Source of the DNA: Octopus vulgaris
Lineage: Eukaryota
Direction of reading: 5' to 3'
DNA length: 64,000 bases
NCBI GenBank assembly: GCA_951406725.2
Contig: OX597815.1
Location: forward strand, 188,418,001 to 188,482,000
Shown here: one piece after another, positions 5,678 to 41,503 of the stretch
How the letters are laid out: each line of letters opens with the position of its first letter
Position numbering within the stretch: position 1 is the stretch's first letter
Made by a program: the position numbers and the translations under genes
Notes under the pieces: model-generated
Told to the model about the DNA's origin: nothing
The model's input: only the letters and a program-made list of their open reading frames with translations
Databases searched by the model: none

Positions 5678-6100
5678 CAGTGTTTCTCAACCAGGGTTCC
5701 CTGGAACGCTATGGTTCTGCCAAAGGTTTCTAGGGGGTCCACAAGAAAGAGTGAGATAAACTAATGCTAATGTCATAATCATAATATTACTATTCATGCA
5801 CATGTTATTAGTTATTGTAATATTGGCTATTGTAATATTGTAATATTACAATATATATATATATTTTTAAGATAGGATAAAATCTTTATAAGAATTTATC
5901 AAGTAGTTTGCGTGAAAAACCTCATAAGAGAAAAAATCCATCAATTTTTTTTTTCCTTTAAATGTATTCATTTTTATTTTATAGAGGGCATTATTACACA
6001 TAAATGCCACACACTAGAAGGGACTCTTAAAGTCAAAACTAGTTTTGACTTTAAGAATCCCTCCTAGCATGTGGCATTTATGTGTAATAATGCCCTCTAT

Positions 6101-6157
<57 letters not shown>

Positions 6158-24990: not shown

Positions 24991-27980
24991 TCTTTCATTT
25001 CCTCCCAAATTCACTCACAAGGCTTTTGGTCAGTCTGGGATTATAGTAGATGACACTTGCCCAAGGTCTTCTGTTATAGAAAATACATCAGTGGAAAATC
25101 AATTCTCTTCAAAGTTCTTTTCGAGAGAACAAAGAACTTTGCACCAAGTTACAGACATTCCCTTGTCCCTCTCCACATCAGAAGTGCAGTGAACCAGTGA
25201 TTGCCCCATTGAAAAACCTGTAATCATCGATATTATTGTTCACGAATTCTGATATAATATATCGGTGAAAAAAAAAAATAGAATATATAGGGAGAAAAAA
25301 AAAAACGTAAAAGAAACCTAAAGTGCCATTTTCTGGAATTGTGTGTATTTGAATGCAATGTATTCCAATGTATTCCAATATTTTGTTGTGCTATAATAAA
25401 TCCCAAGCCTGATTACAAGTATTTAAGCATTATATGTTTCACTCCAACACAAGATTAATAATATTCAGCAAAATTAATTTAGCTTTATCAGTAGGAGAAT
25501 TCATTCATTCTCAGCTATATTATAACATTAAATTTATTGGACAGCAATTCATGAAAGTAATCCCATTGTATTATGATATATGCTGTGTCCAGCTATTTTC
25601 CTATTACTAACTGGCATCAAATGACAGAAAATTGCTAATATATTACCTTAGAATTATGATTAAAATCTCTTTTGAATGTGTTCTTTTTTTTCAATGAAAT
25701 TGAAAACTGTTTGAAGAAATTTCTGTACTTTAATTTATTTAATTTATTTCGCAGTTGGTGAACAATGGTATTGCTGGTTACAGGTAACTAATGAGACTGG
25801 TTCACAGTATTTCTGATGGCAATAATGTCAAGGGAATATTTGTAACATAGTGCAGAACAAATATAACAATGGATTTCATTGGTCACGGTCAAATGACTGA
25901 AACAAGTAAAAGAGAGAAAGAGAGATAGTAAATAAAGATTTAGATTGAAGCAGGAATATGATCCACTGGATTGCTTTGCATTACAATTCTTGCTGCAAGT
26001 CTGTTTTTGTGTGGTATCATAAATTACATAGACATCAGCTTCTTTTATGCATATTTAATAAATGGATAATTTCAAAGTTCTTGTTATCCATTGCATCTAA
26101 TTTGATCACTCCACAAAAATATTCCAAACTGAGTTTGAGATATTCCTGTGAAGTACTTCAATCAAACTTTGTGCTTTTGAGCCAAGGAACAAAATATGTA
26201 TTTTGTTATTTAGCTTGCTCAAAATAGCAGCCTGTCTTTCTCAAATCATTCCTCGTTCTCTTAAATATCAGTATACATTCAATAAGATAGCTTGAGATAT
26301 CTGAATCAAAGATGGGATGGTCACAGCTGGAACATCTTTGATCTTAGATGTGCTCTTTTATAGCTCAAGTAAAGCAAAACAGCTGTAACAACTCTTTGCT
26401 ATTTTCTATGAAAAAGACAAACCTTTTAAGAGGATGATCAGTTCAAATAAACCTATTGAAGAGTAGCCTGAGTCTATATTTCTTTTAACACACCATAGCA
26501 GAATACATTCTCTTGATTTCCATTTGTTGTTGTCAATAGTAATAGAAGATATATATAGCTATGACACACAACTTCAAAAATATAATTACAATGCCACGTG
26601 ATTTAAACTATCAATTCAACTGTTAAACACGATTCCTGGGAGAGTAGTGTTCATGTGATTTACTACAAACAGCACCAGAAGGGTGAAATTATTTCAATGT
26701 CAATATTTGAAGACAATCAAAAGTAACAGTTACCTATCTATGGCTTGTAGTATATTTATGAAAAGGTCATGAAATCAAAGTCTTTAACTTTTGAAGTATT
26801 TGGTAAATGGTAATAAACCATTGCCACAAGGACTACAAGACTATTTTTTTTGTCAACAAAAAAGCAAAGGAAATTTTCGTAAGAAAATTTTAAGCATGTA
26901 CAATTTTTGGAATTCTCTTTTTTCTTAGATTCAGTGAAGATTATCAAATTGCTAAAATGGATCAGGGTGTTAGAGAATTGGGGACTGCTAATTTAAGGAG
27001 TCATAAAGAAAAAATGTCAGTGTCCAGAGAAATTTAATAAAAGTCATCATTGGTAAAAAAAAAAAGAAAAAAAAAAGGGTATTCAATGAAGTTCATCAAT
27101 TTGGATAATTTGCATGATATGAGATGAGAAAAACCTTGATGTTTCATGTGAAGCCCTTTATCAGAGAGGAAAAATATTGATTTTTGCTTGAAGCATCAAG
27201 ATTTTCATATTCCCCACAGTATAGAAACTTTATGTTTTACAAGAGAATAGTCAGTTCAAATAAAACTATTGAAGAATATCCTCAGTCTACAGAAAACAAT
27301 GTTTAACACACTGGTGCCATAATAAGTGCACTAGATTCCATTTATCATATTCAATGGTAATAGAAAATGTAACACACATAACTGTAAAAATATAATTACA
27401 ATACCACACAAATTAAGCTATCAATACAATACAATTGTGAAACACATTTAATAGGATTTAGTAGGATTTCGTTGAACAGGCAATTGTTAGGATTTGTAGT
27501 GCAGAATTGAACAATAGAAGGTTTACCACAGATAAAACAATATCGCAGTGTCACAAAATCGATCAGGGCATCAGATACTGTTATACATTGCTGATCACAA
27601 TGCACTTCCAAGTCTGCCTTCATTGCACTATTTTCTTTCTATCTTGACCCAAATTGTTTGACCAAATCATCTTCTTGTTGTTGTTGTGGAAAATAAAGAA
27701 GTATTTCAAATAAGAAGAATAGCTCTCTGTCTTTATTTTGTTAATTTCTTTTATTTTTTTTTTATTCTTTTGTTTGTTTCAGTCATTTGACTGTGGCCAT
27801 GCTGGAGCACTGCCTTTAGGCGAACAAATCGACCCCAGGACTTATTCTTTGTAAGCCTAGTACTATTTCATCGGTCACTTTTGCTGAACCACTAAGTTAC
27901 AGGGATGTAAACACACCAACATCGGTTGTCAAGCAATGGTGGGGGAACAAACACAGACACACAAACATATACATGTATAA

Positions 27981-28014
<34 letters not shown>

Positions 28015-28479
28015 GATAAGAAAGTTGGTTTGTGAAAGCACGTGGGTGAATATATAGAAAATAGTAAAGAGTGAAAAAACGACAGAAGGCTTAAATGTTA
28101 AAAAATATATATATTTGCGTCAATATGTCTGAAGAATATTAGAAAATTAAAAAAAAAAATTTTTTTCTCTTATAATGACGTAATTTAAAAGAAAGACTGG
28201 TTTCGCGTGTAGCTTTTCAAATTTCTTGTGATGTTATGTTTATGTTGAATAGAGTTATCATTGTGTTTATGTTCCGGAGAGTTCTAAATAAGGGGAGGTA
28301 GTGGGTGATTTCTTCTGGTGTAAGGGAGATAATCGCTTAAAAATTTTTTCCTTTCCCTTGATGTGAATTTCTCTGTATCAGTATGTTCGGATGGTTGAGT
28401 TTGGGCTTGTACTTTTCAATGAAGAAAATTTCCTTGTTTAGTCTAATTTGTGTTGATGATCCGAAAGCACATTGGTAAA

Positions 28480-28863
28480 ATGGAGGGACAGAAATTTAAG
28501 ATCCAATCTAACTTTACTTGTGCCTCTGAAAACATAATTTATGTCATAAAATGCTCGGGCTGCCACCAAGACTACGTGGGCTCCACGGGACTATCACTCA
28601 GACGTAGATGCACACTGCATCGACAACAGATTGCATTCCCAGAATATAGAATGATACCTTTTAGTGAGCACATTGAGAAATGCGCAAAGCAACTACTACC
28701 ACAATTTTTAATCTTTCTATTTTACCAATGTGCTTTCGGATCATCAACACAAATTAGACTAAACAAGGAAACATTCTTCATTGAAAAGTACAAGCCCAGA
28801 CTCAACCATCCGAACATACTGATACAGAGAAATTCACATAAAGGGAAAGGAAAAAATTTTTAA
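28480..28863 (+). CDS. C-terminal GIY-YIG endonuclease domain of a Penelope-like retroelement (fragment)
   Basis: FTCASENIIYVIKCSGCHQDYVGSTGLSLRRRCTLH..FSEHIEKC..RLNKETFFIEKYKPRLN: GIY/YIG variants (IIY, YVG), conserved R, E and LN, and a CxxC..H..H pattern. The first 10 codons of the track ORF come from the inverted arm. Confidence 0.9.
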   Translation: MEGQKFKIQSNFTCASENIIYVIKCSGCHQDYVGSTGLSLRRRCTLHRQQIAFPEYRMIPFSEHIEKCAKQLLPQFLIFLFYQCAFGSSTQIRLNKETFFIEKYKPRLNHPNILIQRNSHKGKGKNF

Positions 28864-28972
28864 GCGATTATCTTCCTTACACCGGAAGAAATCACCCACT
28901 ACCTCCCCTTATTTAGAACTCTCCGGAACATAAACACAATGATAACTCTATTCAACATAAACATAACGTCAC

Positions 28973-29011
28973 AAGAAATTTGAAAAGCTACATGTGAAAC
29001 CGGTCTTTCTT
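28973..29011 (+). ncRNA. Minimal type-I hammerhead ribozyme, U3-A8 variant (mirror copy at 28189-28227, minus strand)
   Basis: AAGAAA t TTGAAAA GC tacat GT GAAA C cg G TC TTTCTT; the mirror copy has a GC/GC stem II. Confidence 0.7.
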
Positions 29012-29583
29012 TTAAATTATGTCATTATAAGAGAAAAAATTAAAAAAAAAAAATTTTCTAATATTCTTCAGACATGTTGACGCAAATATATATATTTTTT
29101 AACATTTAAGCCTTCTGTCGTTTTTTCACTCTTTACTATTTTCTATATATATATATATATATATATACGACGGGCTCCTTTCAGATTCCGTCTAGCAAAA
29201 CCACTCACAAGGCTTTGGTCGGCCCGAAGCTATAGTAGAAGACACTTGCCCAAGGTGCCACGCAGTGGGACTGGACCCGGAATCATGTGGTTGGGAAGTG
29301 AGCTACTTACCACACAACTGCGCCTGCACCTATATTTGATAGAGATAAATGATAAAGATAGGGTGCTCTCTCTCTCTCTCCCCTCTCTTTATCTGGGATA
29401 TTAAGGAATAAATCATAAGAGCTGTCAAGCGTCTATATAAGAGGAATAAATGTTGGTATTGTTTTGCCACAGGTCAACTCTAATTGAACAGACCAATACT
29501 CAAACGTATTCCAACTATGACTTTTTTGGGTTGTCGGCAATTACATCATCCAGTAATGCCTTTTATTATTTTAGATGCAATCA

Positions 29584-33092: not shown

Positions 33093-33328
33093 GTTGTGTC
33101 TGGGGAGAGTCATTTTCTTTTTGTGCCTTATAATGTAACACACTCACTGGTAAAATTTTCACTTTTTTTCTTATTTTTATTTTCCTAAGAAATAAGTGGA
33201 AATTTTACCGGTGAGTGTGTTAAATAATAAGGCACAAAAAGAAAATGACTCTCCCCAGACACAACAGTATATGCTTCAACACACTAACTCATATAAAGAA
33301 TCTTGCAAACCAAATCCAAAAACGAAAA
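33093..33328. mobile_element. Fold-back repeat with one-sided tail (same family as 40965-41503 and 63958-64000)
   Basis: GTTGTGTCTGGGGAGAGTCATTTTC..CCAC arm followed at once by its reverse complement plus a ~65-nt extension. Confidence 0.8.
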
Positions 33329-34205: not shown

Positions 34206-34273
<68 letters not shown>

Positions 34274-34503
34274 AATTAGAGACAAAACCACTATTATGCA
34301 AATCAAACAAAGAAAGACATATATATATATACATATATACGACGGGCTTCTTTCAGTTTCCGTCTACCAAATCCACTCACAAAGCTTTAGTCGGCCCGAG
34401 GCTATAGTAGAAGACACTTGCGCAAGGTGCCACGCAGTGGGACTGAACCCGGCACGATGTGGTTGGTGAGCAAGCTACTTACCACACAGCCACTCCTACG
34501 CCT
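33980..34503 (-). mobile_element. SINE family A with a ~50-bp foreign insert in its (TA)n tract
   Basis: Insert 34270-34320 matches 24835-24880. Confidence 0.85.
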
Positions 34504-35226: not shown

Positions 35227-35856
35227 GAATATTTAAATTTAGATACACACACATTATTATATAGATCTTGATTCAGTTAATATTTGCATTTCACTTTATA
35301 TATTTATCTAAAACTAAAATAAATGAAATGAGCTAACAACCCGTGTTCAAGTGACAGACAAAAAGACTATTTTAGGAAAGAAATAAGTAATTTTATCTAT
35401 CCTGATAAAGAATAAGGTGAATATATGTTAGGAAGAACACATACATATACATAAACACACACACACACACACACTCCATATGTATACTCACACCATGCAC
35501 ACTTCTCCATATGTATACACATACTCACCCCTTCTCTCTGTTTTTTCATGCATGCGTACATACATTTATATTCTCCTATATGAAGAATGGCTTCATTTAT
35601 GAACCCTAGATAAATACAATAATAGGTTAAATATGTGTTTTAACATTCGTGGATGTTATAAATATGGTGCAAGGGATGAGGTGAGATGAAGATCTATGCA
35701 TTTCTGGCTCCAATAAACATGACAGTCACCTAGTCATGTACCAATCAGGCAAACCAGACACACTTCATATTCATCAGAACACAGAATTGGCAACAAGTTG
35801 TAGGTATTGAATTTTCTCTGGGAATTCACTTGTGACTTTTGAAGTTAGGATAAGGA

Positions 35857-36600
35857 TAAGACAAACTTGGAGACAAGATAGACTTGGAGACAAGACAGAC
35901 TGGGAGACAAGACAAGCTGGGAGACAAAACAAACTGGGAGACAAAACAAACTGGGAGACAAGACAAACTGGGAGACAAAACAGACTGGGAGACAAGACAG
36001 ACAGGGAGACAAGACAAACTGGGAGACAAGACAAACTGGGAGACAAGACAAACTGGGAGACAAGACAAACTGGGAGACAAGACAGACTGGGAGACAAGAC
36101 AGACTGGGAGACAAGACAAACTGGGAGACAAGACAAACTGGGAGACAAGACAGACTGGGAGACAAGACAAACTGGGAGACAAGACAGACTGGGAGACAAG
36201 ACAGACTGGGAGACAAGACAAACTGGGAGACAAGACAGACTGGGAGACAAGACAGACTGGGAGACAAGACAGACTGGGAGACAAGACAGACTGGGAGACA
36301 AAATAAACTGGGAGACAAAATAAACTGGGAGACAAAATAAACTGGGAGACAAAATAAACTGGGAGACAAGACAAACTGGGAGACAAAACAAACTGGGAGA
36401 CAAAATAAACTGGGAGACAATACAAACTGGGAGACAAAACAAACTGGGAGACAAAACAAACTGGGAGACAAAACAAACTGGGAGATAAGACAAACTGGGA
36501 GACAAGACAAACTCAAAGACAAGACAAGCTCAGAGACAAGACAAACTTAGAAACAAGGTAAACTTGGAGACAAGACAAACTCAAAGACAAGGCAAACTTG
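35857..36600. repeat. 17-bp minisatellite (CTGGGAGACAAGACARA)n, roughly 40 copies
   Basis: Read directly; the 17-aa periodicity of the ORFs equals 3 x 17 bp. Confidence 0.95.
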
Positions 36601-39681: not shown

Positions 39682-40456
39682 TGATAAAACGGTAAGATAA
39701 CAAAAGAAAGAAAGAGACCTCAATATTATGTAAATAGAGGAAATTTATCTATACAATAATATGTTACATTACTCGGTAGTCAAGATAAAACTCTGAGTTT
39801 CAGATGCCGAAGTGGAAATCCACAACACCATCTCATCGGTTATCTGGCTATTTGAAAACACTAGGAAAAAATACCGTTAAATAAAGGGAAATTACTCTGT
39901 TATAACTCTGTTTGCCTGCGTACTTATACATCGCTCGCATTTTTCGTCATAAAAATTATATAAAAATACATAAAAAATATATAAAAATATATATAAAAAA
40001 TATATAAATTCTTCTTGGGACATAACATAGAAAGCATGTTCTATCTGTTTTCTTTAGGGGACCAAAAACGTAACAGAAATTTAGTCACATGTGGGCATGA
40101 TCCGAAAAGCTCTGTCCTTGTATTTAGACATGTAGTAGGGTCTAAGCTGCTTTTCCGTCCCCTAAAGAAAACAGATAGAACATGCTTTCTATGTTATGTC
40201 CCAAGAAGAATTTATATATTTTTTATATATATTTTTATATATTTTTTATGTATTTTTATATAATTTTTATGACGAAAAATGCGAGCGATGTATAAGTACG
40301 CAGGCAGACAGAGTTATAACAGAGTAATTTCCCTTTATTTAACGGTATTTTTTCCTAGCGTTTTCAAATAGCCAGATAACCGATGAGATGGTGTTGTGGA
40401 TTTCCACTTCAGCATCTGAAACTCAGAGTTTTATCTTGACTACCGAGTAATGTAAC

Positions 40457-40463
<7 letters not shown>
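39682..40463 (+). mobile_element. Non-coding PLE-like insertion: 307-bp inverted repeats, 94-bp spacer, ~74-nt tail, within (TA)n
   Basis: 39756-40062 is the near-exact reverse complement of 40157-40463; each arm carries a hammerhead motif. Confidence 0.85.
40374..40436 (+). ncRNA. Type-I hammerhead ribozyme, U4C variant (mirror copy at 39783-39845, minus strand)
   Basis: AGATAA CCGATGA GATG..GTGGA tt TCCAC..CATC t GAAA CTC a GAG TT TTATCT. Confidence 0.7.
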
Positions 40464-40497
<34 letters not shown>

Positions 40498-40964: not shown

Positions 40965-41503
40965 ATATTTCGTTTTTTGGATTTGGCTTGCAAGATTCTT
41001 TATATGAGTTCGTGTGTTGAAGCATATTTTGTTGTGTCTGGGCAGAGTCATTTTCTTTTTGTGCCTTATAATATAACACACTCACCGGTAAAATTTCCAC
41101 TTTTTTCTTATTTGTATTTTCTAAAATTTTCGTTTTAGAAAACACGGACATGCAAGCACATAAATATGCAGGATACGTACATACAGATGCACATACATAC
41201 ATATATACATATGCATACACACACATATATACATACATACACATGCAAACACACATATACATACATACGTACATGCATGCATGCATAGGCACACACACAC
41301 ACACACACACTGACTCACACACATGTGCACAAACAAACAAAAGGGAATGCAGTGCAAATTATGGACAGAGTCAAAACTATTGAAAAGGTTGCAAGACGCA
41401 ACGAAAATTTTAGGAAAATAAAAATAAGAAATAAGTGGAAATTTTACCGGTGAGTGTGTTACATTATAAGGCACAAAAAGAAAATGACTCTCCCCAGACA
41501 CAA
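40965..41503 (+). mobile_element. PLE-like insertion with inverted arms and asymmetric tail
   Basis: ~41032-41135 is the reverse complement of ~41400-41503; extra tail 40965-41031; hammerhead-like motif at 41377-41413. Confidence 0.7.
41377..41413 (+). ncRNA. Candidate minimal hammerhead, U3-A8 variant
   Basis: CTA TTGAAAA g GTTGC aagac GCAAC GAAA AT TT TAG; stems I and III are very short. Confidence 0.55.

Follow-up and report, generated by a model that had tools for sequence, protein, structure and literature searches.

Background

Penelope-like elements (PLEs) leave recognizable traces in the genomes that they enter. Tails of 30-40 bp are described as their signature (PMC8557442 and PMC11167929), and inverted truncated copies and targeting of (TA)n have been documented for them (PMC8557442). 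The GIY-YIG endonuclease (EN) of PLEs carries a CCHH motif as defined in PMC8557442, where Neptune is paraphyletic and where a zinc finger in the linker is hypothesised to cause the microsatellite bias of Neptune. For Poseidon, in vitro work describes a protein that cuts and extends both strands and prefers an AT-rich target, a reverse transcriptase (RT) with two internal start sites whose spacing equals the tail, and a hammerhead that depends on the protein while being dispensable for insertion in vitro (PMC11167929). A U3-A8 variant of the hammerhead has been published for Schistosoma PLEs, with about 1,300 matches and with opposite-strand pairs 100-700 bp apart; such motifs cleave poorly in vitro (PMC4209133). 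In Octopus vulgaris, 31 recently active Penelope-like families with 336 insertions are reported (PMC13282606).

Here we present the analysis of one locus in a 64,000-nt stretch of Octopus vulgaris DNA, referred to as the window, for which an initial annotation had been made from the sequence alone. With a probability of about 0.88, we read the locus as a single non-functional insertion of a PLE with a C-terminal EN, most likely of Neptune, into the (TA)n tract of an older SINE-like repeat.

Structure of the inserted unit

The inserted unit spans 28015-29150 and is bounded by (TA)n on both sides, with a run of 28 nt to the left (27987-28014) and one of 24 nt to the right (29144-29167). The left run, as read from the sequence, is the target tract and hides any target-site duplication; the first 7 nt of the right run also match the adjoining arm. 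The unit had been located correctly by the initial annotation, its start at 28016 being one base off since the first non-TA base is G28015.

BLASTN aligns 28050-28484 with 28716-29150 as an inverted repeat of 435 nt, ungapped and 94.5% identical (E=0), and local alignment agrees that this is a single ungapped inverted repeat in the unit. Between the two arms lie 231 unique nt. The right arm (28716-29150, plus strand) is the 3' end of the sense copy, made up of the final 148 coding nt (28716-28863, stop included) and 287 nt past the stop, and it ends in (TA)n without a tail. The left arm (28050-28484, minus strand) is an inverted 5'-truncated copy that holds the last 48 codons, the stop and the 3' region, and translates to the C-terminus of the EN. 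Its pseudo-LTR is extended by a tail of 35 nt (28015-28049, minus strand), A/C-rich in the sense reading and absent beyond the right arm; folding predicts no stable stem-loop in the tail region (z=+1.48). These measurements bear out what had been claimed for the unit, namely an inverted pseudo-LTR of about 430 bp, the inclusion in it of about 140 coding nt and the 3' UTR, and a tail of about 34 nt on the inverted arm only.

The unit is composed of two head-to-head 5'-truncated copies of the 3' end of one element, 666 nt in sense and 435 nt plus the 35-nt tail in antisense. A pseudo-LTR in direct or inverted orientation, which may have a tail of 30-40 bp at one end, is a feature by which EN+ PLEs are recognized, and the inverted copy with its tail agrees with it; no tandem copy follows here. 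Protein homology places the head-to-head junction at 28483-28485 (plus strand), a Glu codon common to both arms with an overlap of 2 nt: tblastn of two related proteins discussed below, P0152 and P0153, begins at 28483 on both strands, and the left arm ends at 28484. The size of the overlap is within chance. The junction itself contains neither (TA)n nor a spacer nor any third sequence.

Host repeat and age of the insertion

The sequences on either side of the unit join into one minus-strand SINE-like repeat running from about 29335 down to 27750. Its 5' half (29168-29335, minus strand) is 82-89% identical to 11 other window matches and its 3' half (27750-27986, minus strand) is 78-87% identical to the 3' halves of 10 full-length window matches. 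The window holds 10 other copies of the repeat at 71-86% identity, with a (TA)/(TG) microsatellite at the same mid-position, and in uninterrupted copies the two halves are contiguous. Because the flanking halves join and the copies carry the microsatellite at that place, the proposal that the unit splits a family A SINE at its microsatellite stands. Short, dispersed, non-coding, about 430 nt long and present in 11 copies in 64 kb, the host repeat is SINE-like, and its copies end 3' in a short A-rich repeat. ARAGORN finds no tRNA in the 64-kb window, and a B-box-like stretch of the SINE is seen by eye only. The repeat appears to resemble octopus repeats. Any (TA)n preference of the element, and its tail, are seen in one insertion; the locus of a related element, L005, likewise ends in (TA)n. 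In a further copy of the host SINE, the (TA)n tract is interrupted at about 34271-34317 by 47 nt of non-repeat sequence, which may be a tail-only PLE remnant.

The arms differ at 24 positions, of which 11 fall in one micro-inversion and 13 are scattered substitutions. Transitions account for 11 of these 13, and 6 coincide with one of the 24 CpG positions. The five differences within the coding overlap are spread over four codons; each alters the amino acid and none is synonymous. Being about 3% apart, compared with 14-29% between the SINE and its copies, the arms indicate an insertion younger than its host SINE, and we read their differences from the sequence as decay in place, later than the SINE insertion. 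The copy is dead and 5'-truncated, and cannot move by its own means.

In the micro-inversion (28149-28160 and 29040-29051) a run of A in one arm corresponds to a run of T in the other, bordered by inverted repeats of 6 nt, as might result from a template switch or from an assembly consensus error. The latter origin would also suit the reading of the whole inverted arm as an assembly artefact, and PLE inverted structures are known to trouble short-read assemblies (PMC8557442). We find this reading scarcely credible, as the 13 scattered substitutions follow the CpG-decay pattern, the tail is unique to one arm, and a direct-plus-inverted layout with hammerheads in both orientations is found in an unrelated record, L006.

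The endonuclease fragment

The sense copy contains a 5'-truncated GIY-YIG frame (28483-28863, plus strand) without RT, linker or a start codon of its own. By first codon base, its key residues are Tyr 28540, Cys 28552, Cys 28561, Tyr 28573, Gly 28579, Arg 28606, His 28618, His 28669, Glu 28768 and Asn 28804, positions that are invariant in our alignments A2 and A3. Counting the frame from 28486, the CCHH motif consists of Cys23, Cys26, His45 and His62, with the two Cys between the GIY and YIG halves, and the conserved R, H, E and N of GIY-YIG endonucleases are all kept. Against Pfam PF01541, the frame 28447-28863 scores 19.8 bits (E=0.00097), below the cut-off of 22.6. An AlphaFold model of the frame (pLDDT 83) has the catalytic domain of I-TevI as its top structural match (Z=10.8, rmsd 2.3 over 88 residues), followed by other GIY-YIG domains; the best Foldseek match, at E=0.008, is again to I-TevI, and none lies under 0.001. 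PDB sequence searches with the peptide and with a 23-sequence profile returned nothing significant. The earlier recognition of a GIY-YIG domain with a CxxC..H..H pattern is thus upheld by the CCHH and R/H/E/N residues and by the fold match to I-TevI. Its description as the only real protein domain in the window also agrees with our scans: an HMM of 23 relatives, run on the window, finds this frame and its inverted copy alone, and the Pfam cut-off is reached by none of 35 other long frames in a scan that covered 35 of 59, the 24 microsatellite or low-complexity frames being left out.

The frame had further been called intact, which holds just for the fragment. Its ATG at 28480 is not the element's own: it sits in the left arm, where it arises from a Pro-Phe codon pair read in antisense, and the similarity to P0152 and P0153 begins at 28483. 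Since the ATG arises from the antisense of the inverted arm and the frame continues upstream in relatives, the 127-aa peptide reads as a 5'-truncated fragment with an accidental start, not as a gene product. Such a chimeric ATG can mislead gene finders into calling a false stand-alone nuclease.

A frame that is open from ATG to stop, with catalytic and zinc residues intact, might suggest a domesticated stand-alone GIY-YIG nuclease gene of 127 aa, and RNA transcribed through the locus would fold into a long duplex, as might suit a hairpin RNA of 435 bp that the host retains for regulation. Retention by the host in either form is highly improbable. Besides the antisense origin of the ATG, the frame differs from P0152 at four residues, one of them a Pro in nearly all relatives, the arms show no synonymous difference, and a copy that has diverged from its source by only about 1.5% is expected to keep a 380-nt frame open. 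Two residues unlike P0152 (Ile for Met and Ile for Thr) are common to the arms. P0152 stops ten residues sooner than the window frame (28834-28863), at a point where a single base separates a Ser codon of the window from a stop; its early end may reflect the contig end there, or read-through in the source of the window copy.

Relatives and clade of the element

A phmmer search with the peptide gave 1200 matches at E<=0.001. Among the best 150 of these 1200, the EN lies at most 40 aa from the C-terminus in 143, and none has more than 150 aa after the EN, which excludes the Naiad order. A linker zinc finger, CX2-5CXXC, is present in 89 of the 101 of the best 150 that have enough upstream sequence. 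P0152 matches 93% of the peptide at 97% identity; its 209 additional upstream aa run across a CX4CXXC linker and reach a stretch that is 75% identical to the C-terminal part of the RT of P0153. The latter protein, 71% identical to the peptide, combines RVT_1 (E=1.1e-07), the linker and, at the C-terminus, GIY-YIG; its named relatives include bivalve proteins at 44-45%. RVT_1 is found in 11 of 19 scanned matches. The fusion of the EN to a PLE-type RT in one ORF is accordingly seen in P0152 and P0153; the window copy is truncated, and the stop of its frame follows the EN, as expected of a C-terminal EN. The peptide groups with PLE proteins, the best 150 matches being PLE-type by EN position and linker finger, and RT-linked relatives exist at 97% (P0152) and 71% (P0153) identity. 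The Penelope-like identity proposed in the initial annotation is thereby sustained, as are the inverted pseudo-LTR, the one-sided tail, the hammerhead motif and the (TA)n target that had been put forward with it.

The element is most likely a C-terminal-EN PLE of the Neptune clade, a label that draws on domain order, CCHH and the linker. Arkhipova reportedly described Neptune in 2006 as a clade of EN+ Penelope-like elements. By eye, the linker length fits the Neptune rows and not the shortened Nematis rows in Fig. S2 of PMC8557442. Membership of another PLE clade (Nematis, Penelope/Poseidon, Hydra or Naiad) would gain from the statement that Naiad and Neptune endonucleases are 'essentially indistinguishable' and from the linker finger that Nematis also has (both PMC8557442), as well as from (TA)n-preferring Naiad and Hydra families given for octopuses in the supplement of that article. 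We nevertheless consider it improbable. Naiad needs an N-terminal EN followed by the RT and is without a hammerhead, whereas here the EN is C-terminal, a hammerhead motif is present and the RT lies upstream in P0152 and P0153. Hydra needs an absent CCHH, a CXCX5C linker and a C-terminal CXH, and here CCHH goes with a CX4CXXC linker. This linker, full-length in the 97% relative, is shortened in Nematis, and Penelope/Poseidon have no linker zinc finger upstream of the EN.

Two further candidates were rejected. A homing-endonuclease or bacterial origin is at odds with matches that are RT-linked PLE proteins. Reading the inverted repeat as a DNA transposon or a MITE is at odds with arms that hold EN C-terminal coding sequence and with a one-sided tail. 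A literature search for a cephalopod Neptune family gave nothing specific, most subscription papers, Repbase and Dfam being outside its scope, and is no proof of absence.

Some animal-type PLEs (loci L001-L016; proteins P0170, P0189, P0232 and P0257) come from contigs assigned to bacterial metagenome-assembled genomes, where they go under the name of bacterial GIY-YIG proteins. These assemblies are host-associated and the contigs short, from which we infer that the relatives with bacterial labels represent host DNA; the PLE-bearing contigs of bacterial metagenome-assembled genomes are likely host DNA. Among these loci, L006 has pseudo-LTRs in direct as well as inverted arrangement, its hammerheads facing both ways, and L008/L009 have 3.08-kb tandem copies. 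BLASTN of the element against the 16 loci found no homologous DNA.

Hammerhead motifs

Each arm contains a minimal hammerhead motif with a U3-A8 core, predicted by pattern. The right-arm motif (28973-29011, plus strand) is of type I, with its core at 28980-28986, a 6-bp helix I, a 2-bp helix II, a palindromic helix III (28999-29004) and a predicted cut after C29005. In the left-arm motif (28189-28227, minus strand) the core runs from 28220 down and the helix III palindrome is broken by a CpG change. By pattern, the U3-A8 pair, GAAA, a GUC triplet (NUH site) and three helices are all found. A strict scan of both strands of the window gave two matches only, +28980 and -28220, in keeping with the earlier report of a U3-A8 hammerhead in both arms; 20 Markov-resampled control windows gave a mean of 0.2 matches, 3 of the 20 having at least one. 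In a looser scan both arm motifs rank as strong, and the 20 controls gave no strong match.

Since the patterns were written after the motif had been seen, and the two arm matches are one sequence twice, position carries much of the weight. The core lies 117 nt past the stop here; the corresponding distance is 190 nt for L005 and 146 nt for L004, a comparison made without a control. The hammerhead that follows the stop of L005 (44% protein identity) is a clear one with C3-G8, and that of L004 is weaker; they are in a similar position but do not align with the window motif. No hammerhead was found in the short 3' flanks of L001 and L003, and L002 has no 3' flank. An Rfam scan of the window gave no hammerhead among 85 matches at E<=1, only microsatellite-driven miRNA-type matches. 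As a monomer, the motif folds no better than shuffles (z=+1.8 and -0.09) and unfavourably (+6.0 and +4.4 kcal/mol). The duplex of the helix III palindrome is at -8.3 kcal/mol for the right arm and +1.4 kcal/mol for the left, and an unconstrained two-strand fold did not yield the double hammerhead.

Just 5' of the hammerhead, at 28917-28970, both arms contain a 27-nt tandem duplication. The hexamer ACGTCA occurs 14-80 nt before the hammerhead core, here at 28966 and twice each in L004 and L005, and is absent before it in L001 and L003; it is a possible internal promoter element. A sigma-70 scan of the 3' region gave 3 matches against 1.0 expected, which is not meaningful in an animal.

Other hairpins in the window

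The initial annotation had taken this locus to tie the other hairpin stubs of the window to a PLE enzyme. That tie does not hold. Outside the unit, BLASTN finds no element DNA in the window better than E=0.06, no coding remnants of the element's family are found elsewhere in it, and the hammerhead present in one of six other hairpins examined is of another type. The layout is common to the stubs, of which at least one is PLE-type but from another family; the window element does not supply their enzyme.

The hairpin with the hammerhead is a PLE-type stub at 39682-40477. Its arms (39743-40068 and 40151-40477, 327 nt at 97%) enclose an 82-nt spacer, with a tail of about 60 nt on the left and (TA)n on both sides. 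Both arms have a type I hammerhead (cores +40380 and -39839, C replacing U4) that the strict exact-core scans missed at 39.7-40.5 kb and the looser scan found. Helix III and the cut site read like the Hydra-clade rows in File S2 of PMC8557442, and a Cys-X-His in the spacer is placed like the Hydra C-terminus, which is suggestive only. It is a separate stub, of another PLE-type family than the window element.

Three near-perfect small hairpins (196-386, 532-588 and 5959-6122) lie beside (TA)n, with arms of 27-95 nt, spacers of 0-3 nt and one-sided extensions; neither a hammerhead nor DNA similarity to the element is seen in them. At 33093-33265 and 41032-41503, the same arm sequence marks one inverted-repeat family that is not TA-flanked at both ends and has no hammerhead; our guess is that it is MITE-like or Helitron-related. 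A tandem array with a unit near 39 nt, at about 35800-36550, has open frames on both strands, and the one frame scanned gave no Pfam match. Five 12-nt motifs, from four other hairpins and the element, were sought in the supplement text of PMC8557442 with its consensus files; none of the five was found, a weak result given line breaks and divergence.

Proposed mechanism of insertion

A single insertion from a full-length source copy could produce the observed layout. The RT-EN protein of that copy would cut both strands of the AT-rich target, and each 3'-OH would prime reverse transcription at one of two internal RNA start sites 35 nt apart, so that one start site gives the tail and the other none. 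Both cDNAs would stop early and then, in a joining step that we infer, be united head to head at the 2-nt overlap. The part proposed to target (TA)n is the zinc finger in the linker of the source protein. The hammerhead motif would be inherited cargo, needing a dimer or the help of protein to cut. This model of two-strand priming comes from in vitro work on another clade; a literature search for two-strand priming as the source of inverted ends gave nothing specific, most subscription papers being outside its scope, and is no proof of absence.

The same element might have reached this layout by another route, either through one priming followed by fold-back or template switching, or through two separate insertions of family members, the second landing in the shared (TA)n tract or inside the earlier copy. 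PLEs do insert into or beside existing copies (PMC6765202), and the 13 arm differences outside the micro-inversion could come from two source copies. We judge another route unlikely, in view of the clean junction, the two residues common to the arms and unlike P0152, which point to one source lineage, and the CpG-rich differences, as for decay in place. The recurrence of the one-tail hairpin layout in the unrelated stub at 39682-40477 also counts against another route.

Significance

Each trait of the locus has already been described for PLEs, and this is an ordinary case (PMC8557442, PMC4209133, PMC11167929); the earlier statement that partial pseudo-LTRs with tails are typical of PLE insertions accords with the traits documented in these articles. 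Taken singly, it has little significance, being a decayed copy in the kind of genome that holds many PLE fragments. It offers a clean teaching example of the inverted-plus-tail layout, and its relatives are a warning that animal PLE proteins from metagenome-assembled genomes go under bacterial names. How PLE inverted ends form could be studied with the family as a data set. A bolder reading, which we hold to be doubtful, is that an undescribed and recently active Neptune family is represented here, that its hammerhead, reduced to a U3-A8 core and a 2-bp helix II, retains cleavage as a dimer or with the help of protein, and that head-to-head, one-tailed insertions record simultaneous two-strand priming from two RT start sites. 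If true, hairpin stubs of Neptune, Hydra and others would let the two-strand-priming model be tested by counting alone.

Comparison with known systems

The catalytic domain of I-TevI (PDB 1LN0) has the same GIY-YIG fold and differs in its 17% identity and in having neither CCHH nor RT; it is a fold relative only. Naiad and Hydra elements of cephalopods (PMC8557442 supplement) share (TA)n preference, GIY-YIG, tails and inverted copies; unlike the window element, Naiad has an N-terminal EN and no canonical hammerhead, and Hydra is without CCHH.

The Schistosoma Cercyon PLE hammerheads (PMC4209133) share with the window motif the U3-A8 pair, type I, the G10.1 start of helix II and a palindromic helix III. 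Helix II has 2 bp here and 7-8 bp there, and the opposite-strand pair is 760 bp apart here, compared with 100-700 bp. The window motif also has no extra base between A9 and helix II, and one unpaired U before the core.

Under the proposed mechanism, Poseidon PAc of Anolis carolinensis (PMC11167929) would share with the window element a tail lying between two RT start sites downstream of the hammerhead, an AT-rich target, and the cutting and extension of both strands. It belongs to another clade, without the linker finger, and its hammerhead overlaps the ORF start, in tandem, whereas no tandem copy and no recognised ORF start follow the hammerhead here. PAc has an A/C-rich stem-loop; near the tail of the window element, no stable stem-loop is predicted.

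From Neptune, the window element differs in comprising the 3' 666 nt only and in its U3-A8 core with a 2-bp helix II. It shares with Neptune the C-terminal GIY-YIG with CCHH, the hammerhead pseudo-LTR, the inverted 5'-truncated copy, the tail of 30-40 bp and, in the 97% relative, the CX2-5CXXC linker, and its one insertion in (TA)n would suit the microsatellite bias attributed to that linker (PMC8557442).
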